Source: an uncultured Chloroflexia bacterium (lineage in GTDB: Bacteria; Chloroflexota; Chloroflexia; QHBQ01; JADMIH01). From it: a DNA stretch of 64,000 nt. Shown piece after piece: positions 3,491-63,141 of the stretch. The DNA lies in the NCBI GenBank assembly GCA_963837315.1, contig CAWINE010000013.1, positions 75,780-139,779 on the forward strand, given 5' to 3'. The notes beneath the pieces were generated by a model. That model did no database searches, was not told the DNA's origin, and saw only the letters and a list, made by a program, of their open reading frames with translations. Numbering within the stretch: position 1 is the stretch's first letter; every line of letters starts with the position of its first letter. Made by a program: the position numbers and the translations under genes.

Positions 3491-3740
3491 TTTTCACCGC
3501 CAAGACGCCAAGGTCCGCCAAGGTCGCCAAGATTATTATAGTTTTAACCACGAAGGTCACGAAGGTCACGAAGGTCACGAAGGTTTTTATTGTTTTGAAT
3601 TACAGAGATCACAGAGTTTATTAATGGTTCAACCCAAAAGCCTTGGCGAACCTTTGCGTTCTTGGCGTCTTGGCGGTTCCGTTTTACGTTTTACGTCTTA
3701 CGTTTTACGTTTCGTCCGTCGTCCTTCGTCCGTCGTCCCC
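3491..3740. repeat. composite nested-palindrome repeat element (copy A)
   Basis: Left arm caccgccaagacgccaaggtccgccaaggtcgccaaga (3495-3532) pairs with right arm ccttggcg...cttggcgtcttggcggt (3641-3677). The core has (CACGAAGGT)x4 at 3549-3584 and CACAGAG units. These are followed by an (ACGTTTT)n block at 3681-3712 and a GACGAAG-type block at 3713-3738. Confidence 0.85.
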
Positions 3741-4475
3741 GTAGAGCGCCCTCAGCACCCCGGGCAGCTCGCCTATTCGGGTGATTGTGGCATCCGGGGT
3801 GATGGTCAGGTCGTCGAGGTCGGGGGAACGGTTGGGGACCTTCTTCCAGATACCTTTCATGCCCACGTTTTGTGCGCCTTTGACGTCGTAGCGTAGGAAA
3901 TCGCCCACAAAGGCCACCTCTCGGGGCGGGAGAGCCAGGCAGTCTAGGGCGACCTGGAATATCTGCGGCGCGGGCTTCTCCCAGCCGACCTCGCATGAGT
4001 AGAAGCGGCAGGGAAGGAGATCGATGATGCCCAGGCGCACAAGATCGGGGTCGTGGGCGGCGGCGGGCCAGGATGTGTTCGACACCAGGCCCAGCTTCAG
4101 CCCCCAGTCGCGCAAGGTCTCGAGCGCGGGACGCACGTCGGGCTCTATATAAACGTTGCCGGTGACACGCCCGTACCAGGGCAGCAGACATTCTTCAGGC
4201 CGAAGGTCCGCGATACCAAGCCGGTCGAACATAGGCTGCAGAAGGTCGAGCAGCGGTCGGCCACGCATCGTTTCGCGGGCTTCGGTCCAGCGGGCTTGTG
4301 TGCCGGTTTCCATGGTTTCGATGAACTCATCGAGCGGCGGGAGATGAGCACCGTAACCTCGCTCGGTGATATAGGCGTAAAGGCCGCGGCTCAAATCACG
4401 ATTCAGGTAGCCCCAATCCTCGTTGCGGTACTCCTGCAGCGTGCTGCCCAGGTCGAATAAAACGCCCTTTAGCAT
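3705..4475 (-). CDS. HAD-superfamily hydrolase (subfamily IA-like)
   Basis: 256-aa ORF with an N-terminal DxG motif context (MLKGVLFDLGSTL) and a C-terminal VGDFLRYDVKGAQNVGM. The last ~11 codons (DDGRRTTDET) are encoded by the repeat block at 3705-3740. Overlaps the upstream hydrolase gene by 7 nt. Confidence 0.7.
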   Translation of the reverse strand: MLKGVLFDLGSTLQEYRNEDWGYLNRDLSRGLYAYITERGYGAHLPPLDEFIETMETGTQARWTEARETMRGRPLLDLLQPMFDRLGIADLRPEECLLPWYGRVTGNVYIEPDVRPALETLRDWGLKLGLVSNTSWPAAAHDPDLVRLGIIDLLPCRFYSCEVGWEKPAPQIFQVALDCLALPPREVAFVGDFLRYDVKGAQNVGMKGIWKKVPNRSPDLDDLTITPDATITRIGELPGVLRALYGDDGRRTTDET

Positions 4476-7748: not shown

Positions 7749-7820
7749 CATCGTTCGTCCTTCGTCGTCCATCGTTCGTTCGTCCGTCTACTGACAACTG
7801 ACAACTGACAACTGACAACT
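7749..7820. repeat. half element: GACGAAG-type block + CGTCTA(CTGACAA)4 arm
   Basis: The sequence is catcgttcgtccttcgtcgtccatcgttcgttcgtccgtctactgacaactgacaactgacaactgacaact. It matches the right outer arm of the element at 11672-12039, and no partner arm is nearby. Confidence 0.8.
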
Positions 7821-11120: not shown

Positions 11121-11654
11121 TTAATCGCCGCCGGACCAGCGGCTGTCCGAGCCGTCCGTGCATTCGGGGCACTGAACTTGCACATAATCAAGCCAGTCGA
11201 GGGCGATCTGCGCGGGCGGGAGGGCCCTGGTGTCGTGCGCAGTCTGGAGGTTGTAGACAATACCGTAACGGTCGGCCACGCAGAGGGCAGCGTTCGCTTC
11301 GTCACCCAGGAGACGGTGGGTGGTGCCGGAGCCTTCGTCGGCCAGCAGCGTGAAAGGGAGGTTGAGCCTCTGTGCGAGCGCACGCGCTTCGTTGAGCGGC
11401 AAAGATGTCACGGCGATCACACGCGCAGCCCGGCTGAGTATGTCTCGGTAGATGGTGCCGAGAGCTTGCAGATACGCCGCTCCCTCAGGCGTGCCTTCCA
11501 CGAAAGCAAGCACTAGATTATACTTGCTGCGTGTGGCGGCAGGCCCGGCCTGACCACCTTGGCGCGAAGCTGAAGGCAGATAGAATACCGGCACTCTGCC
11601 CGGATAGCTCAATCTAGTGGCCGCAATCGCCATCGTCTGCGCGGAAATCGGCAT
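11121..11654 (-). CDS. thioredoxin-fold protein, AhpC/TSA(BCP)-like but lacking the peroxidatic Cys
   Basis: 177-aa ORF. LVLAFVEGTPEGAAYLQALGTIYRDILSRAARVIAVTSLPLNEARALAQRLNLPFTLLADE follows the peroxiredoxin pattern (VLxFYPxxxTPxCTxE ... S.D ... FPLLSD), but the Cys position is replaced. A C-terminal CPEC motif is present. Confidence 0.5.
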   Translation of the reverse strand: MPISAQTMAIAATRLSYPGRVPVFYLPSASRQGGQAGPAATRSKYNLVLAFVEGTPEGAAYLQALGTIYRDILSRAARVIAVTSLPLNEARALAQRLNLPFTLLADEGSGTTHRLLGDEANAALCVADRYGIVYNLQTAHDTRALPPAQIALDWLDYVQVQCPECTDGSDSRWSGGD

Positions 11655-11671
11655 GATTATGGTACCTCGGG

Positions 11672-12039
11672 GTTGTCAGTTGTCAGTTGTCAGTTGTCAG
11701 TAGACGAACGACCGTTTCTTTCCACCGCCAAGACGCCAAGGGACGCCAAGGGACGCCAAGATTTCTACGGTTTGAACCACCAAGACACCAAGATCACGAA
11801 GGTTTTATTCGTTTAATCACGAAGGTCACGAAGAGCACGAAGATCACGAAGGTTTTTATTGTGTTGAATCACAGGGAGCACAGGGCACTCAGAGATCATA
11901 GAGGATTTTGATGGTCATATACAATAATAACCTTGGCGGATCTTGGCGCCTTGGCGGTTACATTTTACGTTCACTGCCCACTGCCCACTGCCCACTGCCC
12001 ACCCGTCTACTGACAACTGACAACTGACAACTGACAACT
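11672..12039. repeat. composite nested-palindrome repeat element (copy B, most complete)
   Basis: Outer arms are (TTGTCAG)4+TAGACG (11672-11707) and CGTCTA+(CTGACAA)4 (12004-12038). Inner arms are caccgccaagacgccaagggacgccaagggacgccaaga (11723-11761) and ccttggcggatcttggcgccttggcggt (11931-11958). The core has CACCAAGA, CACGAAG and CACAGGG/CAGAG blocks separated by ggttttat..tt(g/t)aatca spacers, plus (CACTGCC)4 at 11972-12004. Confidence 0.9.
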
Positions 12040-12064
12040 GGCACCAGTATACAAGGACACACCA

Positions 12065-12754
12065 ATGGACACCAAACCAAAGAGAGAGCTTGTCTTCCTG
12101 CTGGACGTCGATAACACACTGCTTGACAACGATAGGGCGAAGGCCGATATGGCGGCACGGTTGTTAGAGATATTGGGAGATGAGGGGTCAAAGCGCTTCT
12201 GGGAGCTTTACGAACAGGCTCGCAAAGAGCTCGACGTGGTTAGCTACCCTGAAACGCTGAGGCGCTTTGCCGAGAGTTGGAAAGACAAGGCTGCCGCACA
12301 GCGTGCCGCCGACGTGGTCAACAACTTGCCCTACGAGCAGTACGTCTATCCGGGCAGCCTGCCCGCTATCCGCCACCTTAGCACTCTGGGCGAGGTCGCA
12401 ATCCTGTCGGACGGAGATGAAGTCTACCAGCCTCATAAGATCGCAGTAGCGGGCCTCGCGGAAGCGGTCGGACCTGAAGACGTGCTGATTTACAGCCATA
12501 AAGAGACCTGCTTTCCCGACGTGATGCACCGTCTCCCGGGCGATCACTATGTGCTCGTGGACGATAAAGAAACCATCCTGGCCCACGCCAAAGGGATATT
12601 AGGAAGCAAGCTGACCACTGTCTGGGTCAAGCAGGGCCACTACGCCCAGGACCCTACCCAGTACATCAAACCCGATCCCGATATCGCCCTGGAAAGCATA
12701 GGCGATATCTGCGGGCTGACCAAAGCAGATTTTCTTGGGAAATCTCAAACGTGA
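12065..12754 (+). CDS. HAD-like hydrolase
   Basis: 229-aa ORF with the DxDxT motif in LVFLLDVDNTLLDND and a later SDGDEVYQ / LVDDK pattern. Confidence 0.6.
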   Translation: MDTKPKRELVFLLDVDNTLLDNDRAKADMAARLLEILGDEGSKRFWELYEQARKELDVVSYPETLRRFAESWKDKAAAQRAADVVNNLPYEQYVYPGSLPAIRHLSTLGEVAILSDGDEVYQPHKIAVAGLAEAVGPEDVLIYSHKETCFPDVMHRLPGDHYVLVDDKETILAHAKGILGSKLTTVWVKQGHYAQDPTQYIKPDPDIALESIGDICGLTKADFLGKSQT

Positions 12755-21182: not shown

Positions 21183-21452
21183 TCTTCAACGCCAAGACGC
21201 CAAGACGCCAAGGTTCTACGGTTTGAACCACAAAGACACCAAGAGCACCAAGGTTTTTATGGGTTTGAATCACGAAGAGCACGAAGGACACGAAGATCAC
21301 CAAGGTTTTTATGGGCGTGAATCGCAGAAACGGCGGAGTACACAGAGATCGCAGAGGATTGTTATACGCGTAAACAATAAAAACCTTGGCGACCTTGGCG
21401 GATCTTGGCGTCTTGGCGGTTCCGTCTTACGTTTTACGTTTTACGTTTTACC
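21183..21452. repeat. composite palindromic repeat element (copy C)
   Basis: Left arm caacgccaagacgccaagacgccaagg (21187-21213) faces right arm ccttggcgaccttggcggatcttggcgtcttggcggt (21384-21420). The core modules align almost base for base with copy D (40197-40370). An (ACGTTTT)n block lies at 21421-21452. Confidence 0.9.
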
Positions 21453-21504: not shown

Positions 21505-22953
21505 ATGGCGGAACTACTCTTCCTGGATAAGAAGCCGGTTGTCCGGCAGCAAGACGACGGCAATCCGCGGGTGGCTTTCGTGACGCTGGGGTGCAAGGTG
21601 AACCAGAGCGATACGCAGAAGGCTATCGCGGATTTCCGCGCGGCGGGCTTCCGCATCGTGCCGCCTGGCGCACCTGCCGACGTATATATCGTCAATACAT
21701 GCTCGGTCACGCACGTGGCAGATCGCAAGAGCCGGCAGTGGCTCCGCCGAGGGGCGCGTGCTAATCCTGATGCGCTGGTGGTCGCCACCGGCTGCTACGC
21801 CGAATCGGGCCGCGACACCCTCCAGGAGATGGACGAGGTAGGGCTGGTAATCGGCTATCAAGAGAAGGACGACCTGCTCAAGCTGGTACTTGAACGAATG
21901 CGGAATGCGGAATGCGGATTGCGGAATGTTGACGACCGACCACCGGCAGTCGATGACCTAGGTGAACCATTCCGCAATCCGCAATCCGCATTCCGCATTC
22001 CGAGCGACGAGGATACGGACTTCCGGCAGCGCACGCGGGCGATGGTGAAGATCGAGGATGGGTGCAACGACTTCTGCACTTTCTGCATCATCCCGTTCAC
22101 ACGAGGGATGCCGCGCTCGACGCCTACCAATCGGGCTGTCGAAATGGTGAACGAAAGGCTTTCGGAGGGCTTCAAAGAGATCGTGCTCACGGGTGTGCAT
22201 ATGGGCAAGTATGGGCAGGACCACGCGCAGCGCAAGCGCGCCGCCGGTGACCCCACCGAAGCGCCCGATCTTCCCGGCGTGGTGCGCGCTATCCTCGACC
22301 GGACAGATGTGCCGCGCCTGCGTATCACGTCGGTCGAGCCGACCGATGCGGTCATGATGCTGCCTCTCCTCACCGATCCAGCCTACATGGGCAGGCTAGC
22401 TCCGCACCTTCATTTGCCATTGCAAAGCGGCTGCGATGCCACTCTGGCGCGTATGAAGCGCGATTACGACGCAGCGGAGTTCGCGGATGTCGTGAGGCAG
22501 TGTCGCGCAGCAGTGCCGGGCATCGCCATCACCACTGACCTCATAACGGGCTTCCCAGGCGAAACGGACGAGGAGTGGGCGCAAACCGTCAGCTTCGCCA
22601 GGAGCATGGAGTTCGCCAGGATCCACGTCTTCCCATACTCACAGCGACCCAACACTCCCGCCGCCACTATGCAAGGCCAGGTCCACCCCGACGTGCGCCA
22701 CGCCCGCACTCTGCAAATGATGGAGATCAGCCAGGGAGCCGAAGCGGCCTACGCCGTGCAGCAGTTGGGTCGCACACTGCCTATCCTCTGGGAAAACCAG
22801 GCGGGCGGAATATGGAGCGGCCTCACGGATAACTACCTGCGCGTCCATACAAAGTCGCAGCGCGACCTGATGAACGAAATCACCCCTGCTGCTGTTACGT
22901 CATACGATGCGCTTGGGCTGTGGGCCGAGCCATTGGACAAGGCTAGTTGCTAG
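21505..22953 (+). CDS. mtaB: tRNA methylthiotransferase MtaB (radical SAM MTTase) carrying an in-frame repeat insertion
   Basis: 482-aa ORF. The N-terminal MTTase domain is VAFVTLGCKVNQSDTQ...NTCSVT, the radical SAM motif is IEDGCNDFCTFCIIP, and a C-terminal TRAM-like region is present. The linker contains the repeat-encoded RMRNAECGLRN...FRNPQSAFRIP. Confidence 0.85.
   Translation: MAELLFLDKKPVVRQQDDGNPRVAFVTLGCKVNQSDTQKAIADFRAAGFRIVPPGAPADVYIVNTCSVTHVADRKSRQWLRRGARANPDALVVATGCYAESGRDTLQEMDEVGLVIGYQEKDDLLKLVLERMRNAECGLRNVDDRPPAVDDLGEPFRNPQSAFRIPSDEDTDFRQRTRAMVKIEDGCNDFCTFCIIPFTRGMPRSTPTNRAVEMVNERLSEGFKEIVLTGVHMGKYGQDHAQRKRAAGDPTEAPDLPGVVRAILDRTDVPRLRITSVEPTDAVMMLPLLTDPAYMGRLAPHLHLPLQSGCDATLARMKRDYDAAEFADVVRQCRAAVPGIAITTDLITGFPGETDEEWAQTVSFARSMEFARIHVFPYSQRPNTPAATMQGQVHPDVRHARTLQMMEISQGAEAAYAVQQLGRTLPILWENQAGGIWSGLTDNYLRVHTKSQRDLMNEITPAAVTSYDALGLWAEPLDKASC
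21896..22002. repeat. GCGGAWT-type hairpin element inside mtaB
   Basis: Left arm gaatgcggaatgcggaatgcggattgcggaatg (21896-21928) and right arm cattccgcaatccgcaatccgcattccgcattccg (21968-22002) are separated by a 39-nt loop. The arms are near-perfect reverse complements. Confidence 0.9.
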
Positions 22954-37906: not shown

Positions 37907-39016
37907 TTGGACCCGCAAAACCTCACAGCCAACGCCTCGCTCAACCGCGTGCGAATCGTGGATCTGCCGGGCGTGCGGCTGGGAGAGGAAGATATCAAAG
38001 GCAAGCTCGCCTTCGACCTCCTCTCGGCCGGCGCGCTCGCAAAGTGCATCGGGCAGCAAGCCGGCCAACTGCTGCTGCCCGATGCCGACCTCTCGCAATT
38101 GCCTTTGCTGCTCGACCACTGCTTCGAATCGGAGAGCAAAGCAGCACGCCAAGCAGCGGAATCGATCGCCCGGCGCTACGGCCGCCGCTTAGGATATCTC
38201 ATCGCCACTCTGAAACGAGGTGACGAGATAAACAGGCAAGCGCGCCCACAATGGGACGATTCCTACTGGCAACAGTGGGCCGTCATACGTGAGATCCGGC
38301 TGGGCGGTGGGCTGGTAAGCGGTCACCTGGGCCAACAAGTCGTGCAATATGCCCAGGAGGCTCTCGAAAGCGCGTATGTATACGATTGCACCGTTTCGCT
38401 GTCGGAGTTCCCTTACCTGCTGCCCCTGATCGGAGCGGCCAGGAGCACACCCACCGATAACAGGGCCATGCTTGTGTTCGACTTCGGCGGCACCTACGCC
38501 AAGCGTGCACACGCCTTCTACAACGACGGGACACTCACCTCATTGAAAGTGCTACCCAGGCAAGCAGTCCGGAGAGCAGAACCTGTTGCCGGCGAAGAGG
38601 GGGAAGAATATATGTACAACAAAGCCCTCAGTCTGGCAGAGCAGATGGTAATCACGATGGCGGACACCTGGCAGCAGGCCGTCCGATCCGGCCTTGATCT
38701 CTCGCCCCGGATAGTGGCGGCTATAGCGAGCTACATGGTCAACGGTCGCCCCGAGTTCAAGCCAGAGCGGGCTTTACAGCGAGCTACACCGCCTTCCCTC
38801 AGATATCGAAACCTGGTTTACCGAGGCCCTGGGCAACCGCCTCGGCCAGCCTATTGCTATCACCTTCCTGCACGACGGTACAGCAGCCGCCCGAGCCATC
38901 GCAGGCCCAGCTACAAGCCTCACAGCCGTGATTTTCTCGGCACGGCCCTGGGCGTAGGCTTCCCGCCGTCAACAAAAGGGCTGCGGCCAATAGCGCAACC
39001 GCTAGCCGTGTCATGA
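37907..39016 (+). CDS. ASKHA/ROK-like (sugar-kinase-fold) protein with two compensating frameshifts
   Basis: TTG-start ORF containing MLVFDFGGTYAKRA. Between ~38760 and ~38935 the annotated frame is low-complexity (RYRNLVYRGPGQPPRPAYCYHLPARRYSS), whereas an alternative frame reads SGLYSELHRLPSDIETWFTEALGNRLGQPIAITFLHDGTAAARAIAGPATSLTAVIF and then rejoins LGTALGVGFPP. Confidence 0.45.
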   Translation: MDPQNLTANASLNRVRIVDLPGVRLGEEDIKGKLAFDLLSAGALAKCIGQQAGQLLLPDADLSQLPLLLDHCFESESKAARQAAESIARRYGRRLGYLIATLKRGDEINRQARPQWDDSYWQQWAVIREIRLGGGLVSGHLGQQVVQYAQEALESAYVYDCTVSLSEFPYLLPLIGAARSTPTDNRAMLVFDFGGTYAKRAHAFYNDGTLTSLKVLPRQAVRRAEPVAGEEGEEYMYNKALSLAEQMVITMADTWQQAVRSGLDLSPRIVAAIASYMVNGRPEFKPERALQRATPPSLRYRNLVYRGPGQPPRPAYCYHLPARRYSSRPSHRRPSYKPHSRDFLGTALGVGFPPSTKGLRPIAQPLAVS

Positions 39017-39118
39017 TATAATCGTCCCGGCTGCAGATTCTGGCGATCACCTGTAACTGAACACAGCGCAACCATAAGCCTGCGCACATCACCCCTGCAC
39101 CCCCAATAACCATAAAGA

Positions 39119-39193
39119 ATCTCTGCGAACCTCTGCGCGCTCTGCGCCTCTGCGGTGAGTTAATGGTAAATCCGCATTCCGCATTCCGCAATT
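39119..39193. repeat. CTCTGCG block + (AATCCGC/ATTCCGC) arm
   Basis: atctctgcgaacctctgcgcgctctgcgcctctgcggtgagtt (39119-39161) matches the right arm of the 56789-56929 element and is followed by aatccgcattccgcattccgcaatt (39169-39193). Confidence 0.85.
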
Positions 39194-39195
39194 AA

Positions 39196-39204
39196 TGATA
39201 TAAT
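39196..39204 (+). promoter_or_regulatory. extended -10 (TGATATAAT) positioned for a leaderless purC transcript
   Basis: TATAAT lies at 39199-39204, followed by 6 nt (cgtccc) and then the purC ATG at 39211. There is no Shine-Dalgarno sequence. Confidence 0.5.
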
Positions 39205-39210
39205 CGTCCC

Positions 39211-40129: not shown

Positions 40130-40432
40130 GAGTTGTCAGTTGTCAGTTGTCGGTTGTCAGTAGACGGATAACCGACGACAGACGACCATTTTATTTCAAC
40201 GCCAAGACGCCAAGACGCCAAGGATTTTACGGTTTGAACCACAAAGACACAAAGATCACGAAGGTTTCTATGGGTTTGAATCACGAAGAGCACGAAGGAC
40301 ACGAAGATCACTAAGGTTTTTATGGGTTTGAATCAGAGAGTGCACAGAGTATACAGAGATCACTTAATTTATCATGGTTTACGGTTTACGTTTTTGCGCT
40401 TCACTGCCCATCGTCTACCGACAACTGACAAC
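40130..40432. repeat. composite nested-palindrome repeat element (copy D)
   Basis: It starts 2 nt after the purC stop. Outer arms are gagttgtcagttgtcagttgtcggttgtcagtagacgg (40130-40167) and cgtctaccgacaactgacaac (40411-40431). The inner left arm caacgccaagacgccaagacgccaagg lies at 40197-40223, and the inner right arm is missing. Confidence 0.9.
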
Positions 40433-40723: not shown

Positions 40724-40873
40724 GATTGCGGATTGCGGATTGCGGATTAGTCTTTACCGCCAAGACGCCAAGATCCGCCAAGGGCCGCCAAGATTTTTAT
40801 TGGTGTAAGCAGTAAGCAGTAAGCAATATCCGCAATTCGTAATCCGCATTCCGCATTCCGCATTCCGCATTCC
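40724..40873. repeat. composite repeat element (copy E)
   Basis: Outer arms are (GATTGCG)3 (40724-40748) and atatccgcaattcgtaatccgcattccgcattccgcattccgcattcc (40826-40873). Inside are a GCCAAGA block (40756-40793) and (GTAAGCA)3 (40805-40825). The element ends 3 nt before the mrp ATG. Confidence 0.9.
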
Positions 40874-48240: not shown

Positions 48241-50454
48241 CTAAGTCGCCCCGGCCATCACTCGCGTGAGCACCACGCTTATGTTATCTTCGCCGCCGTT
48301 GGCGTTGGCCTGGTCTATAAGGGCCTGGCTGATGGTCTGGGGGTCGGTGGGAGAGGCCAGTATAGATGCGATGCTGGGATCGCGCACGAAATCCCACAAT
48401 CCGTCCGAACAGAGGAGCAGGCCATCCCCCGGTCTAAGCCGCTGGCTGTAGACGTCTATCTCGTCTTCGGTGAGGCGCGAATTGCCCAGGGCGCGGTAGA
48501 TTTCGTTGCGACGCGGGTGCGTGTAAATGTCATCGGGCTTGATTTGCCCCGCCATCACAAGCTGCATTACCAGCGAGTGATCGCGCGTGAGGACCTGCAA
48601 AGTATTGTCGTGCCAGATATAGGCCCGGCTATCGCCCACGTTTGCAACCGTCAACTGGTTGCCTATGAGGAGCGCAACCACCGTGGTGGTGCCCAGATCC
48701 GAGTGCCGCTCACGAGCCAGATCGGTGATACGCCGGTTGGCTTCGAGCACCGCTTGCTGCAACAGATGGCCGCAGGTATTGGCGTCGCGGGCCACAGGGT
48801 CGCCCGATACGAGCGGACCCAGCAGCGAGGAGTTCACCACAGCCCCTATCGTGCGGATCGCGATAGACGAAGCCACCTCGCCGCTCTGGTGCCCTCCCAT
48901 GCCATCCGCGATCACGTACAGGGCCACCGGAAGATTGCCTTCGTGCTCCAGTACTGTGGCTTCGAAGGTGAGCACGCTGTCTTCGTTTATCTTGCGCACC
49001 CTGCCCACATCGGAGGCTCGCCCGCTCCAGAGCTTAAGGTTGGTGAGGGGCTTGCTCGCCTCGTAGAGATCGCGCAATACCTCGGCGAAGGCATGTGCGG
49101 TAGGGTAAGAGCCTTCTCGCGCTCGCGCCAGTGCCACAGCCGGGTTCATGTCGCGGCCCAACGGTCCCGTCACTTCGTAGGCCGCCACCATCGGCATTGG
49201 CGAGATTGCGACCCCCGAACGCTCCTTAGATACAGGGCCAGGCTCACCTTCCTCGGGAGCGACCTCTTTGCGTACGGCCATGTACCAGCGCTCCAGCTCC
49301 GATGCCAGGGCCCGCACATCCGAAAGCTCGGCTGAGTCTCGCTCTTGCATGCTCAGGTTATCTGTCACGCTGCAACCCGAAGGATCGAGCAGCAGCACGC
49401 GGTCACCCGGCTGCACAAGCAAATTGGCAAGCTCCAGCGCGCAACCGGCTATACTCTCGTCGTGAAGCCGCGCCAGCAAATCAGCAGCCTGCACCATCCA
49501 GGCAAGGGTCTGCTCTTCTTCAGGTTCTAGCGGTACTGCGAGGTGGCCCGACTGGCTCGCCAGCAATTCGTCCGTTACCGTGGACCCCGGCAGCCAGGAG
49601 GCCAGAGTTCGCCCTGATGCTTCCTCCCAGGCCACGTAAATCCGTCCCGTTTGCTCGTCCACCCAAACATCATAGACATGCGCCACGCCCATCACCCGGT
49701 TCTCGAGGATCGCAGGAGCGATCTTGATTGCGGATTGCGGATTGCGGATTGCGGATTGCGAGGACGAAGGTGCATTGCCGATTGCGGATTGCTCAGGAGT
49801 GAGAGCCGGGTACTGAGGATTGAGTGCGGTTTCTTCTACTCCGGCGGCCACTCCCTCGGCTACCATCTCCGGCCCACCCCCACCGTTCGCTATGAGTCCG
49901 TTGCCTGCCGCCGGTACGCCGTCGTCGGTGGTCGATCGTCCGTCGTCCGCCGGCAGATTATACTCTTGCAGCCTGTAGAAGCGTCCCGCCAGTTGCGCGC
50001 CGCATTCCACGCAGTAAATATCGCCGGGCATGGAGCTATCTGAGCCGCAGGCCCAGCAGCGGCGATAGCCTTGCAGGTCGGTCACGCGGTACATATTGGT
50101 ATCGCGCACAACGCCGAGAAAAGCCGCCACCTGGTAGCGCTCGTTCAGCACGGTGTGTTCAGCAAGAGGAGGTGAGGGCGGCCCGCCATTCTCAGGCAAG
50201 GGGGTAGTATTCTTGCCGCGTGTCGTGCCAATGGTGCCAAGCGGCTCGGTGATGATGTTATCCGGCGAGACTGCTACTGCCTCGACTTCGGATTTGGCTG
50301 CAGGCTGTTCGGCCTGTGCGGCATCTTGCGCCTGTGCTGGTGTGTCGCCGGGTGGCGGCTCAGGAGATAGTTCAGACGGTTGAGGGGGTTGAGGAGGTGG
50401 CTGAGGCTGTGTCTCTTCCTCGCTGGTGGGGCCGGCTGCCGGATCTATATTCAT
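48241..50454 (-). CDS. PP2C Ser/Thr phosphatase fused to an N-terminal Zn-ribbon-containing kinase-like (pseudokinase) domain
   Basis: ORF 48241..50577(-). The likely start is ATG 50454 (MNIDPAAGPTSEE), and the upstream codons translate hairpin 50483-50579. The C-terminal PP2C domain has GRVRKINEDS, YVIADGMGGHQSGEVAS, VANVGDSRAY, LLLCSDGLWD and GGEDNISVVL. The N-terminal part has LNERYQVAAFLG, the Zn ribbon CWACGS...CVECG, and a kinase-like C-lobe whose catalytic loop reads GCALELANLL and whose DFG position reads DPS. Confidence 0.8.
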   Translation of the reverse strand: MNIDPAAGPTSEEETQPQPPPQPPQPSELSPEPPPGDTPAQAQDAAQAEQPAAKSEVEAVAVSPDNIITEPLGTIGTTRGKNTTPLPENGGPPSPPLAEHTVLNERYQVAAFLGVVRDTNMYRVTDLQGYRRCWACGSDSSMPGDIYCVECGAQLAGRFYRLQEYNLPADDGRSTTDDGVPAAGNGLIANGGGGPEMVAEGVAAGVEETALNPQYPALTPEQSAIGNAPSSSQSAIRNPQSAIKIAPAILENRVMGVAHVYDVWVDEQTGRIYVAWEEASGRTLASWLPGSTVTDELLASQSGHLAVPLEPEEEQTLAWMVQAADLLARLHDESIAGCALELANLLVQPGDRVLLLDPSGCSVTDNLSMQERDSAELSDVRALASELERWYMAVRKEVAPEEGEPGPVSKERSGVAISPMPMVAAYEVTGPLGRDMNPAVALARAREGSYPTAHAFAEVLRDLYEASKPLTNLKLWSGRASDVGRVRKINEDSVLTFEATVLEHEGNLPVALYVIADGMGGHQSGEVASSIAIRTIGAVVNSSLLGPLVSGDPVARDANTCGHLLQQAVLEANRRITDLARERHSDLGTTTVVALLIGNQLTVANVGDSRAYIWHDNTLQVLTRDHSLVMQLVMAGQIKPDDIYTHPRRNEIYRALGNSRLTEDEIDVYSQRLRPGDGLLLCSDGLWDFVRDPSIASILASPTDPQTISQALIDQANANGGEDNISVVLTRVMAGAT
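49726..49792. repeat. (GATTGCG)5 + (GATTGCG)2 direct blocks inside the PP2C gene
   Basis: gattgcggattgcggattgcggattgcggattgcg (49726-49760) and gattgcggattgc (49780-49792) are translated in frame as EQSAIGNAPSSSQSAIRNPQSAIKIAP. Confidence 0.85.
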
Positions 50455-50482
50455 ATAGCCATAAACCTCGTCAGGCCCGTCT

Positions 50483-50579
50483 GAATGCGGAATACGGAAT
50501 GTGGAATGCGGAATACATAGGTTGTCGGTTGTGGGTCGCCCAGCGGCATTCCGCATTCCACATTCCACATTCCACATTC
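50483..50579. repeat. GCGGAAT/GTGGAAT-type hairpin in the divergent promoter region
   Basis: Left arm gaatgcggaatacggaatgtggaatgcggaata (50483-50515) faces right arm cattccgcattccacattccacattccacattc (50547-50579). The loop contains ggttgtcggttgtggg. Confidence 0.9.
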
Positions 50580-57041: not shown

Positions 57042-59551
57042 ATGAGCGCAGCCAACCTCGACGTGGGTGATAGAGAGCCTGAATTGGGCGAAAGCCTTTC
57101 GGAATCAGCACCCCGCCAACAGACCCTAAAACAACCGACGACCGGTCCTGAGCCTGCGAAGGATACCTCGCTAAAGATGCAGCGACCGGCAACCAAAGGC
57201 GCCGCAAATGGCGTCCTCGACGGTCAGAACGGCGCGCGCCCGGCGTCTAACGGACACAAGCCAAAAGCACGCAAAGGCATCGAGATAGAAACGGTCGGCC
57301 AGAGTCCCAGGCCGAAGACTGTCACCCTCGACACGCCTGATAAAGTACGTCCGCAGGCTACAACCCCGACACTGATTTCGAAGGCATCCGCAAATCCTAC
57401 GCCTTCGCTGAGCTTGCCCACGATGGCCAGATGCGCGGCACCGGCGAGCCGTACATCACCCACCCCTTGCAAGTGGCCTATATCCTGGCCGAGATGCACC
57501 TCGACTCTGAGACCATCGAGGCCGCTCTCCTGCACGACACCATCGAGGATACCGCCGCCACCAACGACGACATCACCAAGCTGTTCGGCCCCACCATCGC
57601 GCACCTTGTGGAAGGTGTTACCAAGCTCGGCACGGTCAGCAAGCTGCGCCGCCAGAGCGAAATCGCTGCCGAAAAAGAGCGTGAGCGCGAGAAGAGCCGC
57701 ACCGACACCCACCAGATCCAGGCCGAGAACCTCCGCAAGATGTTCCTCGCCATGTTCGATGACCCGCGCGTGGTGCTCATCAAGCTGGCCGACCGCCTGC
57801 ACAACATGCGCACTCTCCATGGCCTCCCTCCCGAAAAGCAGCAGCGCATAGCCACCCAGACCCTCGAAATCTACGCGCCCCTCGCCAACCGCCTCGGTAT
57901 GTGGCAGATGAAGGGCGAGCTTGAAGACCTGTCCTTCCGCTACCTCGACCCCGAGAAGTTTCGCGAGCTTTCCGACCTCCTCAAGGAGACCGAGACCGCC
58001 CGAGACCGCTATCTTGCCCGCGTCATTACCAACCTCACCGGCGAGATGGAAAGCGCAGGCATCGAAGTCACCATCAAGGGTCGCGTCAAGCACGTATTCT
58101 CCCTCTGGCAGAAGATGCAGCGCAAGAACCGCCCTATCGAGCATATTTACGACCTGCTGGCGGTGCGTATCATCGTCGATTCGGTCAAGGATTGTTACGC
58201 GGCCCTGGGCGTGATCCACTCGCTCTGGCCCCCCATCCCCGGCGAGTTCGACGATTATATAGCGCGGCCCAAAGAGTCGATGTACCAGTCGCTGCACACC
58301 GCCGTGTGGGCGCTCGATAACAAGCCGCTCGAAATCCAGATTCGCACCCATGAGATGCACGAAATCGCCGAGTACGGCATCGCGGCCCACTGGCGCTACA
58401 AGGAGCAGCGTGGCGGCAAGCGGGACTGGCGCTACGAGCAGAAAATCGCCTGGCTGCGCCGCCTGATGAGCTGGCGCGACGAGGTGGAGACCGCCCAGGA
58501 CTTTGTCGAATCGCTCAAAAGCGACCTCTTCCAGGAGCACATTTACGTCTTCACGCCACAGGGCGACATCGTGGAGCTGCCCAAGGGAGCCACGCCCATC
58601 GATTTCGCCTACCGCATCCACACCGACCTGGGCCACCAGGTGGGTGGAGCGAAGATGAACGAAAAGCTGGTGACGCTCGATACGCCTCTGGAAAACGGCG
58701 CTGTAGTGCGTATTATGAAGGACAAGAACCGGGTCGGCCCATCGCGCGACTGGCTGCAGTCTGACCGCTTCATCAAGACCGGCAACGCCCGCCAGAAGGT
58801 GCGCCAGTGGTTCAGCCGCCAGCGCCGCGACGAGAAGATCGTCCAGGGCCGCGCTATCCTCGACCAGACGCTCAAGCACCTGGGCCTAAGCAACGTGGCG
58901 CAGGTCGACATCCTCGAATACTTCCCGCGCTATAAAGAGCTGGACGATTTCCTTGAGGCTATCGGCAATACCGACATCAGCGCGGCCCAGATCACGAGCA
59001 AGGTGGGCGAGCACCGCCAGGAGGAGCTTCTACCCGAAGCCGAAAGCACCGGCGTTACCATCCCGACCAACCTTTCAAACGTGCCGATGGTGCAGCCCAC
59101 CATGCAGGTGAGCGACCTGGGAGGCTTCCTCACGCAGCTTGCGCGCTGCTGCAAGCCCATGCCCGGCGACGAAGTGATCGGCTATACCACCAAAGGGCGC
59201 GGTATCACCGTCCATCGCTCGGATTGCTCCAACCTGTCGCAGGTGCGCGACGTTGGCCGCCTCGTACGCGTCAACTGGGGCGCGAAAGGGATGGCCAGAT
59301 ATCCCGCAGGCGTGCGCATCGAAGCTCTCGACCGCGCCGGATTGCTTCGCGACGTCACCACCATGCTCGCTGACGAGAAAGTGAACATCCTCAGCGTCCA
59401 CACCCACAAGAAACCCGCCTCCGCCACCACCACCCTCATCATGGCCCTCGAAGTCTCCGGTGTAGAACAGCTCTACCAGATGATGGACCGCCTACAGTCC
59501 GTGCATGGGGTGTTCGAAGTGCAAAGGGACACAGGTGGGGCGATTGAATGA
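57042..59551 (+). CDS. relA: bifunctional (p)ppGpp synthetase/hydrolase (RelA/SpoT homolog), apparent frameshift near 57349-57356
   Basis: ORF 57431..59551 has the HD domain (HPLQVAYILAEMHLDSETIEAALLHDTIEDT), the synthetase domain (YIARPKESMYQSLHT), a TGS domain (IYVFTPQGDIVELPKGATPIDFAY) and an ACT domain. The conserved N-terminal helix (GYNPDTDFEGIRKSYAFAELAHDGQ) is open upstream in the same frame but has no start codon. ORF 57006..57851 supplies an N-terminal extension in another frame. Confidence 0.85.
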
Positions 59552-60048
59552 ATGCGGAATGTGGAATTCGGAATGCGGAATGTTAGTCGCGCTTGATTAA
59601 CCTTCAGTAAATCAGTACTGTAAACAGTCCTGGCAATATTCCGCATTCAGGAGCGCTTATTCTGGCGGACAGGGATAACGAAAGCCTTCGCCTTGCGGTG
59701 CTGAAATTGGCAGACAGTTTACCCAGAGAACGTAGCGCTGACGTCATTGGTAAGCAATGCTAAGATGCGCGGCATCAGTTGGCGCGAATTACCGGAGTGC
59801 CTGCCGAGCAAAGTCAACAGCAGATTTCATGCGCAGATGCGATTGTCGGAAGAGGAGCCGACGAAGCTTATCCTCAGATGGAGTTACCGGTTGAAAGCAA
59901 TTTGGTAGCTCAAGGAAACTCACTGGCTTGATGAGACAAGCCAATGAGATAGTTGACTATAGTTGTGGCTTCAGTCAAAACAACAAGAAGTCACAAAGTC
60001 TAACGCAGTCAATAACATTCCGCATTCCGAATTCCACATTCCGCATTC
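59550..60048. mobile_element. MITE-like element: perfect 33-bp terminal inverted repeats flanking a decayed four-helix-bundle (23S rRNA IVS protein-like) gene
   Basis: The left TIR gaatgcggaatgtggaattcggaatgcggaatg (59550-59582) is the exact reverse complement of cattccgcattccgaattccacattccgcattc (60016-60048). The interior has lower GC and, across frames, reads ...LKLADSLPRERSADVIGKQ / RSKADFIAKM.. / ..ELLVESNLV / MRQANEIV.., which fits the TIGR02436-type pattern (my recollection of that family). Confidence 0.6.
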
Positions 60049-61131: not shown

Positions 61132-63141
61132 ATGGATAGCGTAAGCGACGAAGCCCTCGTACCGGAACAAGCAGAACCAGATACAAACGAACCAACTATT
61201 GTCGTTCGAAAAGTAAGCTCACAACCTGTGGAATCCGGTGATTCCGCACTACCCGCTCTGCAACCCTCGCCTGTTAGACCCTGGGTGCCGGGCGAGCAGC
61301 CCGCCCCCGAGCCGGAAATTGAGGGCCAACCGCAAGACGAGTTCAGCCTGCCGCAGGCTCAGCCGGCCGCCGACCTCGCACCCGGTAGACTCAAAACCCG
61401 CTGGGTGCTACTCGTCTTCGGTGTCACCTTTCTCTTCTACGGGCTCTTCGTCAACCGTATCATCCTTTACAGCAGCCCGCCCACCGGCGACCAGGCGTTC
61501 TACCTCATGGTGACGATGAGCATCGTGCAGGATGGCGATTTCAACCTCGCGAACAACTACGCCAACCGCGACGAAAACAAGTTCTACTCTCTAGCTCCTC
61601 ACCCTCCCAACTTCGTAGGCATGGACGCCCCATACCCTCTTCCCCCACATAACGGCTTCACTCCGGCTCGGCCGGCCGGCGAGCAATACAATTTCCACTG
61701 GCCCGGCCTTTCCCTGCTGGTGGCTCCGGCCTGGGTGATAGGAGGCATTTTCGGCCTCTGGTGGCCTGCGACCGTGGTTTTCATGTGCATTATAGGCGCT
61801 CTGCTCGCCACCAATATCTTCCTGCTCGCCCACGAGATTAGCGGCCGAGCCTGGATTGCCCTGGTGGTGTGGGCGGCGCTCGCTTTCAGCAACCCGCTGA
61901 TGTCCTACACATACCTCATCTTCTCGGAGCTGACCTGCGGCCTGCTCATGCTGTATGCTTTCAGGCGATTGGCGCTCGGCTGGGGCGCGAACAGCCCTTT
62001 CAGGCTCCTGCTGGTCGGCCTCAGCATCGCCTACATCCCCTGGGTGGCCTGGCGTTGCGCACCCATCTCCTTCGGCCTGGGCATATACGCCGCCGTGCAG
62101 TGGTGGCGGTGGTACCGAATGCGGAATGCGGAATTCGGAATTCGGAATAAAGACGAATCAAGGAGCATTCCGAATTCCACATTCCACATTCCGCATTCCC
62201 TCTGGCTGGTGATCCCTATAGTCGTGTCACTTGCGCTGCTGACCTGGTACAACTTCTTCCTTTTCGGCAAGTTCTTTCCCAATAACCAGACACCCGAGCG
62301 CGGTGACCTGCCGATTTTCTTCTGGCCCTGGGAGAGCCGCGAGAATCTAACGCATTTCTTGACTTCAGGATACGGCCTGCTCTTCGACCGGGCGTTCGGC
62401 CTGCTGGCTTTCGCCCCGGTCTACCTGCTCGCAGTTGTGGGCATCATTGCTATGTTCCAGTCGCGCAGGCGCAGCGACCGGCGGCTGCTTTTCTGGATGG
62501 GATTCATCGTTCTCCCCTACCTGGGCATCATCATGTCGTTTTATTACTGGAGCGGCATATGGAACCCGCCGGCACGCTTCCAAACTACCCTTGTGCCTCT
62601 CCTTGCAGCGCCGCTGGCCATGGCCCTGGTCGCCTGCAATAACTGGTTTTACCGTGCAATTTTCGGCATCTTATCGGCATGGGGCTTTCTCATGATGAGT
62701 ATCATGGTCGCCGACCCGCGCCGCCTGTGGCCCGCAAATGCGCCTTACGAGTGGATGTCGGGTGCAGTCACCTACCTCAGCGGCGGGAACTTCCCTGTAC
62801 GGATCAACCTGTGGAACCTCCTACCCGCAGTGGACCCAGTCGACGAGAGGACCTTACCCTCCAATACTGCCCTTGTGACCATCGTGTCATTGGCCATAGT
62901 TGTGCTGTGCTATTTCCTGATGACTCGCTGGCGAGAGGCTTCGCGCAATTGCGGAATGCGGAATGCGGATTGCGGATTGAAGACGATCGGGCAACATTCC
63001 CCATTCGCCATTCCCCGTCCCGCATTCGGGCAATCCGCAATCCGCAATCCGCAATCCGCAATCCGCATTCGTCTGGTCCGTAGCGTTTGTGCTGGTGGGA
63101 GCAAGCTGGTATTTCGCCAACTTCGACTATATCCAGCATAG
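61132..63141 (+). CDS. polytopic membrane protein, GT-C fold (ArnT/PMT, GT39-like) glycosyltransferase candidate, with two repeat insertions
   Basis: 669-aa ORF with a first-loop motif SSPPTGDQAFYLMVTMSIVQDGDFNL and at least 10 hydrophobic helices. Repeat-encoded peptides are RMRNAEFGIRNKDESRSIPNSTFHIPHS and NCGMRNADCGLK...SAIRNPQSAIRIR. The 3' end runs through the repeat at 62947-63070, so the true stop is uncertain. Confidence 0.5.
   Translation: MDSVSDEALVPEQAEPDTNEPTIVVRKVSSQPVESGDSALPALQPSPVRPWVPGEQPAPEPEIEGQPQDEFSLPQAQPAADLAPGRLKTRWVLLVFGVTFLFYGLFVNRIILYSSPPTGDQAFYLMVTMSIVQDGDFNLANNYANRDENKFYSLAPHPPNFVGMDAPYPLPPHNGFTPARPAGEQYNFHWPGLSLLVAPAWVIGGIFGLWWPATVVFMCIIGALLATNIFLLAHEISGRAWIALVVWAALAFSNPLMSYTYLIFSELTCGLLMLYAFRRLALGWGANSPFRLLLVGLSIAYIPWVAWRCAPISFGLGIYAAVQWWRWYRMRNAEFGIRNKDESRSIPNSTFHIPHSLWLVIPIVVSLALLTWYNFFLFGKFFPNNQTPERGDLPIFFWPWESRENLTHFLTSGYGLLFDRAFGLLAFAPVYLLAVVGIIAMFQSRRRSDRRLLFWMGFIVLPYLGIIMSFYYWSGIWNPPARFQTTLVPLLAAPLAMALVACNNWFYRAIFGILSAWGFLMMSIMVADPRRLWPANAPYEWMSGAVTYLSGGNFPVRINLWNLLPAVDPVDERTLPSNTALVTIVSLAIVVLCYFLMTRWREASRNCGMRNADCGLKTIGQHSPFAIPRPAFGQSAIRNPQSAIRIRLVRSVCAGGSKLVFRQLRLYPA
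62117..62199. repeat. GCGGAAT-type hairpin inside the GT-C gene
   Basis: Left arm gaatgcggaatgcggaattcggaattcggaata (62117-62149) faces right arm cattccgaattccacattccacattccgcattcc (62166-62199). Confidence 0.9.
62947..63070. repeat. GCGGAWT-type hairpin at the GT-C / NHL gene boundary
   Basis: Left arm aattgcggaatgcggaatgcggattgcggattg (62947-62979) faces right arm cattccccattcgccattccccgtcccgcattcgggc(aatccgc)5attc (62995-63070). Confidence 0.9.

Follow-up and report, generated by a model that had tools for sequence, protein, structure and literature searches.

Layered tandem-repeat palindromes in a Chloroflexia genome resemble the arms of small-gene cassettes

Several gaps between genes of an uncultured Chloroflexia bacterium are occupied by tandem arrays of 7- to 9-nt units that face complementary arrays, one palindrome nested within another. 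What are these elements, and where might they come from? We addressed this question in a 64-kb stretch of the genome (contig CAWINE010000013.1, positions 75,780 to 139,779 of the forward strand; hereafter the window, whose numbering is used throughout), in which a first-pass annotation had grouped the locus at 11672-12039 (here element B, 11672-12040) with four others. The observation holds up, and the elements are best classed as a nested, gene-less variant of cassettes that are armed with tandem repeats and resemble the intervening sequences (IVS) of 23S rRNA. What the first-pass annotation had missed is that the five loci belong to a larger class, that their inner arm is found across phyla and that such arrays are the arms of cassettes of small genes.

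Architecture of the five loci

Reading of the sequence confirmed that layered inverted arrays are present in all five loci (elements A to E, all given on the + strand), as had been claimed. Element B lies between divergent AhpC-like (- strand) and HAD (+ strand) genes. Its outer arms, (TTGTCAG)4 plus TAGACG at 11673-11706 and CGTCTA plus (CTGACAA)4 at 12004-12037, enclose inner arms made of four CGCCAAGA-type units (11726-11760) opposite (CTTGGCG)3 (11932-11956). The core consists of three modules, each composed of a clamp, an array of CACCAAGA, CACGAAGGT or CACAGGGAG and a spacer close to GGTTTTTATGGGTTTGAATCA, while a further array, (CACTGCC)4, is placed between the right inner and the right outer arm at 11972-12002.

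Element A (3491-3740) separates the stop of a HAD hydrolase gene from the start of a glycogen debranching enzyme gene, both on the - strand. From its left edge it reads a TTTTCAC clamp, (CGCCAAGA/G)4, a spacer, (CACGAAGGT)4, the spacer GGTTTTTATTGTTTTGAATTA, (CAGAGATCA)2 and an AT-rich centre, followed on the right side by the spacer TGGTTCAACCCAAAAGC, (CTTGGCG)4, GTTCCG, (TTTTACG)4-5 and (TCGTCCG)4. The open reading frame (ORF) of the HAD hydrolase (3705-4475, - strand) terminates within the (TCGTCCG)n/(TTTTACG)n arrays of this element (3705-3740), so that its last ~10 codons and its stop codon are repeat-derived. Element C (21183-21452), between divergent P450 (- strand) and MtaB-like radical-SAM (+ strand) genes, is without TTGTCAG outer arms and runs from (CGCCAAGA)3 through three modules and an AT-rich centre with the small palindrome ATTGTTATACGCGTAAACAAT to (CTTGGCG)4, GTTCCG and (TTTTACG)4.

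The remaining two elements adjoin purC, purS and the gene for a Mrp/ParA-type ATPase (mrp), and their distances to the neighbouring stop and start codons are as claimed. Element D (40130-40432), between the purC stop (40128) and the purS ATG (40441), is composed of (TTGTCAG)4, TAGACG, (CGCCAAGA)3, three modules near-identical to those of element C, (GTTTACG)2, one CACTGCC, CGTCTA and (CTGACAA)2. It had been described as lacking one arm; the right inner (TCTTGGCG) arm is indeed missing, but the right outer arm is present, and 40133-40432 is bounded by the same outer-arm pair as element B. Element E (40724-40873), between the purS stop and the mrp ATG (40877), has (GATTGCG)3.6 opposite (TCCGCAA/TCCGCAT)n, with (CGCCAAGA)4, TTTTTATTGGT and (GTAAGCA)3 in the unpaired loop.

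Inner arms of the form (CGCCAAGA)n opposite (TCTTGGCG)n are therefore common to A, B and C, and every core array is preceded by GAATCAC, GAACCAC or TTTCAC, while GGCGGTTCC comes after the right arm. Within the window, the inner-arm pattern CGCCAAGACGCCAAG has 11 matches at ≤2 mismatches against 0.21 expected, and the spacer GGTTTTTATGGGTTTGAATCA has six at ≤3 mismatches where 0 were expected, every one of them on the + strand. When the cores were aligned with MAFFT, C and D proved near-identical over ~150 nt, including the spacers and the unit-variant order of the CACGAAG array (CACGAAGAG, CACGAAGGA, CACGAAGAT); element B aligns throughout, and element A is short of one module. Tandem Repeats Finder (TRF) detected a 52-nt higher-order period across the modules at 40240-40364. 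The spacer and inner-arm statistics together with the near-identity of C and D indicate that the copies derive from one another rather than from independent slippage. The claim of a real dispersed repeat family is thus borne out, since C and D have spacers and unit-variant order in common, beyond the simple tandem blocks.

The spacer copies start at 3582, 11851, 21252, 21304, 40263 and 40315, and all asymmetric cores are oriented +, whatever the orientation of the neighbouring genes; with only four or five elements, this common orientation could be chance. We also considered two other identities for the core. A CRISPR array was rejected because the units of 7-9 nt are directly tandem and the 'spacers' are conserved, not unique, and a phase-variable promoter built from the TTGAAT..TTTTAT of the spacer was rejected because the spacing is 36 nt in most modules.

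The inner arm across phyla and the genes between the arms

We scanned one genome per species for (GCCAAGAC)2GCCAAG and found at least 118 loci that carry it, in Myxococcota (Sorangium and others), Planctomycetota (Phycisphaerae and others), Verrucomicrobiota, Acidobacteriota, Gemmatimonadota, Chloroflexota and Alpha-, Beta- and Gammaproteobacteria, among others. Among the loci listed, 74 have a left array with an opposing right array no more than 500 nt away. The typical hairpin reads gaaC(CGCCAAGA)3, an AT-rich loop and (TCTTGGCG)3-4Gttc; unit counts are unequal between the two arms of a pair, and the 3-4 nt just outside the arms vary by locus yet remain complementary (gaaC/Gttc, tcaC/Gtga, ctct/agag, ggaaa/tttcc). 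Since other tandem repeats are rare in those 8-kb loci, CGCCAAGA marks a specific element and is not one of many random arrays.

In one Verrucomicrobia locus (L116) the arms surround an intact gene, in the order tcaCGCCAAGACGCCAAGACGCCAAG-ATG...stop...CTTCGCGTCTTCGCGTCTTTGCGtga, which encodes a GxxExxY protein (PF13366, E = 3.6e-42; TIGR04256, E = 4e-42). Three gene-less copies lie 3' of this cassette. They have lost ~310 nt of the gene interior and retain ATGAACGAAA, the final ~50 nt of the gene and both arms, which shows directly that a cassette can become a gene-less hairpin by losing the interior of its gene. Intact GxxExxY genes also fill the 400-434 nt loops of loci in Sorangium (L013), a planctomycete (L080) and a member of the Holophagaceae (L092), so that the arms enclose an intact PF13366 gene in four phyla. 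Sorangium sp. So ce134 (CP150314.1; within L006-L122) has at least 17 CGCCAAGA-array loci, most of the paired ones with short AT-rich loops; among the loci listed, a GxxExxY gene is present in one only (L013), and gene-less copies outnumber gene-bearing ones by more than 10:1. A six-frame translation of the window contained no GxxExxY gene when searched with a hidden Markov model built from four cassette genes.

To approach the association from the side of the genes, we fetched 80 relatives of each of two gene families with their flanks, and scored an inverted repeat as present if the match between upstream and downstream flank was at least 10 above the best of 20 shuffles. GxxExxY genes were flanked by an inverted repeat in 55 of 76 cases, with a clear period of 8 in 19, of 9 in one and of 7 in none. 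Genes of the four-helix-bundle family (23S-rRNA-IVS protein) were so flanked in 63 of 78 cases, with a period of 7 in 52 and of 8 in none, and the same criterion gave 0 of 98 for neighbouring control ORFs. The samples were the best 80 of about 590 relatives each and non-random, so these fractions are indicative and not population estimates. The split between periods 7 and 8 follows the gene family (Fisher's exact p = 3e-18).

The two kinds of arm also differ in sequence. Units of GxxExxY arms obey the pattern C-R-C-N-R-A-G-R (CGCAAAGA, CGCAGAGA, CACGGAGG, CGCGGAGA, CACAAAGA, CGCCAAGA) and (T)CAC/GTGA(G) closes the arms. The left arm in most cases ends 0-10 nt before the ATG and the right arm starts 3-17 nt past the stop; the gene in an intact cassette encodes a PD-(D/E)XK protein of ~125 aa. 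Four-helix-bundle arms are built from GAAGGAT, GAATTAT, GAATGAT, GAATGCA, AATGACC and similar units, many of which hold a Shine-Dalgarno-like stretch and an ATG. Both cassette types have a purine-rich 5' arm, with Shine-Dalgarno-like or ATG-containing units, that stops 0-10 nt short of the start codon, and a 3' arm complementary to it. The two types cluster in a metagenome-assembled genome (MAG) of the Verrucomicrobiae (L198, 1460-2420), where a GxxExxY cassette and, directly after it, a four-helix-bundle cassette each have their own arm type, (CGCAGAGA)n in the first and heptamers of the TTAAGAA type in the second. As for the proteins, the four-helix-bundle protein matches the structure 2RLD, itself an uncharacterised protein, and we found no structurally solved relative of GxxExxY by sequence. 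GxxExxY/PDDEXK_3 is listed without a known function and as having been transferred between divisions multiple times (PMC3424549). Our literature search on the arm sequence and on GxxExxY/PDDEXK_3 returned no report of flanking repeats, and we found no paper that links GxxExxY or the four-helix-bundle family in general to tandem-oligomer arms.

Arrays of the window can be assigned to the same two types. The core arrays of A to E all fit the octamer pattern (CGCCAAGA, CACCAAGA, CACAAAGA, CACGAAGG+T, CACAGAGA+T), although among these octamer layers only the CGCCAAGA layer has a right partner, and the GAA(T/C)CAC or TTTCAC before each core array resembles the left clamp of the cassettes. GAATGCG and GATTGCG fit the heptamer type of the four-helix-bundle arms. 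By their sequence, then, the window arrays (CGCCAAGA, CACCAAGA, CACGAAGGT and CACAGAGAT on the one hand, GAATGCG and GATTGCG on the other) belong to the two types of cassette arm.

Sibling arrays in the window and turnover among relatives

The five loci are a subset of a larger array population. Tandem arrays with a period of 6-10 number 59 in the 64 kb according to TRF, and 39 of these are heptamer arrays; ten first-order Markov simulations yielded 0-3. Besides A to E there are at least eight inverted heptamer pairs, mostly (GAATGCG)n or (GATTGCG)n opposite their complements, with 17-433 nt between the arms, and all loci lie between or within protein-coding genes. The pair at 59550-60048 (+ strand), (GAATGCG)4.7 opposite (CATTCCG)4.7 with 433 nt between them, encloses a frameshifted pseudogene of the four-helix-bundle (23S rRNA IVS protein) family at ~59611-59905. 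One ORF piece matches PF05635 with E = 0.0024, and the 72-aa peptide obtained after repairing the frame by hand reached 37.7 bits (E = 2.6e-9), which exceeds the gathering score; the peptide is 47% identical to an intact homologue.

Partial copies, identified with TRF, are also present. At 7749-7820 (+ strand) a right half is found with TCGTCC-type repeats, CGTCTA and (CTGACAA)4, and 5' of purC a right-arm-only remnant (39120-39190, + strand; TRF and arm comparison) begins at 39120-39159 with an octamer right arm, TCTCTGCG..CCTCTGCG, and a GTGAG clamp of the sort that GxxExxY cassettes typically have; (ATCCGCA)3 comes next. A 16-nt sequence, ATGATATAATCGTCCC, is present on either side of these arrays (39014-39030 and 39196-39210), its first copy overlapping the stop of the upstream gene, and right-arm-only arrays fill the 165 nt between the two copies. 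The second copy forms an extended -10 box (TGATATAAT) ending 7 nt 5' of the purC ATG, which suggests a leaderless purC mRNA.

Further sibling hairpins (all + strand) are (GAATGCG)4.6, 32 nt, (CATTCCA)4.7 at 50483-50579; (GAATGCG)4.6, 17 nt, (CATTCCA)4.9 at 62117-62199; and (ATTGCGG)4.6 opposite (GCAATCC)5.4, with (CATTCCC)n in the loop, at 62948-63067. Another, (GAATGCG)4.7, 42 nt, (TCCGCAA)4.6 at 21896-22002, lies within the MtaB-like radical-SAM ORF (21505-22953), which reads through it. The linker encoded by this hairpin (RMRNAECGLRN..FRNPQSAFRIPS) joins the UPF0004 and Radical_SAM domains, and the 81% orthologue has an unrelated linker of similar length without arrays. Two long mechanical ORFs, 48241-50577 and 61132-63141, cross several heptamer arrays; one encodes a PP2C phosphatase whose domain is confined to the C-terminal third, and the other is without a Pfam match. 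The true starts and frames of both are uncertain, and arrays of this kind may mislead gene callers. Across the window, the cumulative GC skew climbs to ~10-12 kb and then declines steadily, a turn that may mark a replication origin or terminus, or only gene orientation.

Homologues of purC assign the organism to the class Chloroflexia of the Chloroflexota, and its nearest relatives, at 91% identity, stem from metagenomes. We compared the purC-purS-mrp region with that of relatives ranked by purC identity: L204 and the P0004 contig (91%), L205 (85%) and L004 (81%). The window has element D (~303 nt) between purC and purS, and between purS and mrp element E, in which (GATTGCG)n arms surround (CGCCAAGA)4 and (GTAAGCA)3. 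Both 91% relatives are without an element between purC and purS, and in L204 the purC TGA overlaps the purS ATG. The next gap of L204 contains (GCTATCA)n, GAAC(CACCAAGA)3, the spacer-like GGTCTTTATTGTTCTTTAC and (CACAGAGAA)4. In L205 only CGTCTA(CTGACAA)4 is found between purC and purS, 6 nt before the purS ATG, and (TTTTACG)4 between purS and mrp. L004 has no arrays in the first gap and (AAAACGT)n, three CGCCAAGA-type units, GGTTATTTATTGGTT and (TCACGTT)n in the second. The ATGATATAATCGTCCC duplication also occurs in L205, with different arrays between its copies, and L004 has one copy.

The earlier suggestion of module-wise gain and loss is borne out directly by these differences, element D being absent at 91% identity and represented by its right outer arm only at 85%. 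The gaps show that arrays and layers come and go even between close relatives, and C and D show that whole cores are duplicated as units. The array grammar is common to the lineage; the content of any single site turns over fast.

Further copies in the L004 genome are built as (CGTAAAA)n..(CGCCAAGA)3 GGTT(G/T)TTATAGGTT..(TTTTACG)n, and the looser spacer motif GGTTnTTATnGGTT after (CGCCAAGA)3 recurs there. The exact spacer was not found elsewhere in genome and metagenome collections. We rejected three degenerate-spacer matches in genomes (a Woesearchaeota archaeon, Trichodesmium and an unclassified bacterium), which were taken for chance from their unrelated hosts, their sequences being uninspected, and 14 spacer matches in metagenome contigs. 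Of the 14, AT-rich DNA (28-42% GC) accounts for 13 and a contig of 61% GC for the other, and none is flanked by arrays. By sequence matching, the exact modular core appears so far to be private to the source genome.

Several Chloroflexia MAGs contain a homologous family with the order AGACGGAA(A/C), (CGCCAAGA)n, GACCACGCCAAG and, in some cases, TTCAC(CGCAGAGA)n. Next comes a central hairpin, AAAAGGACCAGGGTAC..GTACCCTGGTCCTTTT, in which compensatory changes are seen, and last the mirror image ending in TTTCCGTCT. Both sides of these copies are fully mirrored and bear an AGACGG..CCGTCT clamp, the one that reads TAGACG/CGTCTA in the window. The idea that each spacer (..ATGGGTTTGAATCAC) is what remains of the start codon and C-terminal codons of a deleted GxxExxY gene was considered and set aside: the related MAGs have a mirror copy of this stretch on the right, and the spacer is more simply part of the stem.

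Proposed descent from cassettes and the alternatives

A close precedent is the 23S rRNA IVS of Coxiella burnetii, a 428-nt selfish element with complementary termini and a decaying ORF for S23p, a four-helix-bundle protein (PMC4990558). Its stem contains two or three tandem GACAGAT heptamers, variable in number between strains, immediately before the start codon of S23p. The stem is also where RNase III cleaves, processing that has been demonstrated experimentally for the Coxiella and Leptospira IVS (PMC4990558). Four-helix-bundle cassettes have the same build, a small ORF enclosed by complementary ends that pair as a long stem, with heptamers in the arm next to the ORF start, but the Coxiella IVS sits in rRNA. 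Heptamer arms are also found in B, D, E and 59550-60048, the last of which has the same build and the same gene family. The window elements differ from rRNA IVS in lying outside the 23S rRNA helices concerned (9, 25 and 45), the whole window being free of rRNA or any other Rfam family at gathering thresholds, and the five loci differ further in having no ORF, several nested layers, and inner layers of 8-9-mers instead of 7-mers.

On balance, we favour a reading in which each of the five loci is a nested copy, devoid of genes, of a type of palindromic cassette resembling the 23S rRNA IVS. They would be remnants or non-autonomous derivatives of gene cassettes and mainly selfish passengers. An older hairpin would receive, or tolerate, new copies in its AT-rich centre; element E, where the loop between heptamer arms contains an octamer module, would be an example of such nesting. 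The arrays would grow, shrink and homogenise through slipped-strand mispairing, and the one-sided stack of three or four left-type arrays would stem from tandem duplication of [clamp + array + spacer] modules, yielding the 52-nt period. Outward-facing (CTGACAA)n arms would then have ended up as leaders directly 5' of host start codons. In transcripts, by analogy with rRNA IVS, the arms may pair into long stems, sequester the 5' arm and serve as substrates of RNase III, and such a stem would sever or insulate the mRNAs of host genes, purC|purS|mrp among them. RNA folds of B (-145.5 kcal/mol, z = -9.2, outer and inner arms paired), C (-93.4 kcal/mol, z = -6.1) and D (-86.1 kcal/mol, z = -4.4) are predicted to be very stable, and the arms pair in both the minimum-free-energy and the centroid folds.

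Several observations weigh against descent from cassettes. When GxxExxY and four-helix-bundle genes were looked for, no gene or recognisable remnant was found in the five loci, and their link to cassettes is made through arm similarity, one sibling in the window (59550-60048) and the Verrucomicrobia locus L116. The outer heptamers TTGTCAG, TTTTACG and CACTGCC fall outside the purine-rich, GAA-type pattern of four-helix-bundle arms; the (ATGACAA)n arms that flank a four-helix-bundle gene in L287 are one base from the CTGACAA of the window. The core is asymmetric, with three or four left-type arrays against one right arm, which simple nested palindrome insertion does not predict, so that tandem module duplication must be added. 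We identified no target-site duplication or mobility enzyme, the sole flanking direct repeat being CGAG around element D, possibly by chance. Among arm mismatches on the strand of the enclosed gene, G.U pairs showed no significant excess over A.C pairs (79 vs 73 and 31 vs 23), and RNA-level pairing is therefore not favoured over DNA-level symmetry. The indicative character of the flanking fractions has to be counted here as well.

Two rival explanations strike us as improbable, to a similar degree. The first holds that the 7-9-mer arrays are binding sites for one or a few nucleoid or global regulators that organise or regulate adjacent promoters. A precedent is available in Geobacter metallireducens, where 24, 21 and 8 site pairs ('class 1-3') consist of 3-5 tandem octa- or heptanucleotides on opposite strands at variable distance, with the unit consensuses GTTGCTYN, TCTCCGTS[Y] and MTYCTGA; in the part of the paper available to us the authors read them as binding sites of unknown global regulators, of the IHF/HU type (PMC2700814). 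The window elements fit this descriptive class of paired, mostly intergenic sites (e.g. proB/proA in Geobacter), and the class 2 unit TCTCCGTS complements CACGGAGA, which fits C-R-C-N-R-A-G-R. Their units, too, are periodic, paired on opposite strands at variable spacing and often placed at promoters or between divergent genes (B, C), and of two weak promoter-like matches around element B one overlaps its left outer arm. The Geobacter account concerns a single genome, however, and the passages searched do not mention a link to GxxExxY or four-helix-bundle genes, nesting or a modular core (PMC2700814). At least ten different units occur in the 64 kb, with different units in successive layers of one element, a poor fit to one or a few sequence-specific proteins. 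In addition, left and right arms covary by locus and by phylum, the same arrays tightly clamp small genes from start codon to stop codon, and arrays are found inside ORFs too.

According to the second, the arrays are host-beneficial repeats of mRNA leaders that act in translation, through ribosome loading or regulator binding, and their inverted partners are secondary. The model for this would be the TAACTGA direct repeats of Beggiatoaceae, cyanobacteria and Bacteroidetes, whose mechanism of transfer is given as unknown in the passages searched (PMC4679880). These heptamers, one base from the CAACTGA of the window, form sets of 2-6 copies that are mostly intergenic, forward and just upstream of starts, most arrays ending 1 nt before the start codon according to the same passages. 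Four of the six (CTGACAA)n arrays of the window agree with such placement, being forward and 8-33 nt upstream of a start codon; the 85% relative retains that arm alone, 6 nt before the purS ATG, and the 5' arms of cassettes hold Shine-Dalgarno-like and ATG-containing units. However, the other two of the six are partner arms by gene 3' ends (40133-40161, after purC, and 7790-7820, adjoin stop codons), many arrays lie in loops with no gene downstream, and in a 91% relative purS, whose ATG the purC TGA overlaps, is translated with no array of this kind. The TAACTGA repeats themselves are hardly ever inverted in the one genome censused (BOGUAY), which has 169 direct sets and one indirect repeat; they are not nested, and the passages searched do not mention an association with small-gene cassettes (PMC4679880).

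Less probable still is that the long hairpins are terminators, attenuators or insulators. The stability of the folds would suit such a role, as would the position of D and E between co-directional genes, and the related Chloroflexia copies have a central GC-rich hairpin between an A-run and a T-run that resembles a bidirectional intrinsic terminator. By eye, the window copies are without this central GC hairpin, and a scan of 11400-12300, which covers element B as the only element scanned, found no hairpin-plus-T-run terminator. Termination would serve no purpose at B and C, which separate the starts of divergent genes, sibling hairpins occur inside ORFs, and a terminator between purC and purS would split an operon that is fused in relatives. 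The first-pass statement that the elements are not simply terminators accordingly stands. As for independent slippage at each site without any family or copying, the inverted arrangement being incidental, the fast shifts of array number and unit sequence between relatives and the unequal unit counts of paired arms would suit it, but it is excluded by the ~150 nt common to C and D with their non-repetitive spacers and unit-variant order, the six spacer matches against 0 expected, the identical CGCCAAGA hairpin with covarying clamps across phyla and the 7-versus-8 dichotomy that tracks the enclosed gene family.

That the elements belong to no named family was a fair statement, qualified by partial precedents in the Coxiella IVS heptamers, the Geobacter paired sites and the TAACTGA repeats. 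They are like repetitive extragenic palindromes (REP, BIME, REPIN), miniature inverted-repeat transposable elements (MITE) and Rickettsia palindromic elements in being short, non-autonomous, palindromic and dispersed between genes, in outnumbering their coding relatives and, for some copies, in being tolerated in frame inside genes, as is the hairpin in the MtaB-like ORF. They differ from these in that we found no RAYT or transposase partner and no target-site duplication, and in that the arms are tandem oligomers and not unique inverted repeats. The short tandemly repeated repetitive (STRR) heptamers of filamentous cyanobacteria, reportedly described by Mazel et al. in 1990 and Elhai et al. 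in 2008, are intergenic, with embedded, conserved, nested and suspected mobile pieces of ~21-27 nt (small dispersed repeats, SDR); they belong to another phylum and have other units than those of the window. The (AATGACC)n arms of four-helix-bundle genes at one of our loci (L256) match the complement of the STRR2 unit TTGGTCA.

More tentatively, there may be one widespread type of bacterial mini-cassette, defined by inverted tandem-oligomer arrays, with an octamer/GxxExxY lineage and a heptamer/four-helix-bundle (Avd/S23p-like) lineage, of which the rRNA IVS would be a special case and STRR, TAACTGA repeats, Geobacter sites and the Chloroflexia elements decayed derivatives. If so, the strict 8-versus-7 rule would mean that recognition by, or dependence of, each protein family is tied to a particular arm geometry, whether this serves mobility or control at the RNA level.

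To our knowledge, short tandem hepta- and octamer arrays (STRR, Geobacter, TAACTGA) have been catalogued since 1990 without an explanation. Tracing one arm outward from the window, where such arrays are dense, ties them to two very common gene families of unknown function, by a rule that is simple and strong across phyla: octamer arms with GxxExxY genes, heptamer arms with four-helix-bundle genes. This raises the questions of whether RNase III cuts such stems outside rRNA, whether the 3' arm silences the 5' arm and whether the GxxExxY nuclease acts on its own arms. For the genomes that harbour them, the elements alter operon structure between close relatives, insert repeat-encoded peptides into proteins and fragment the assemblies of these lineages.

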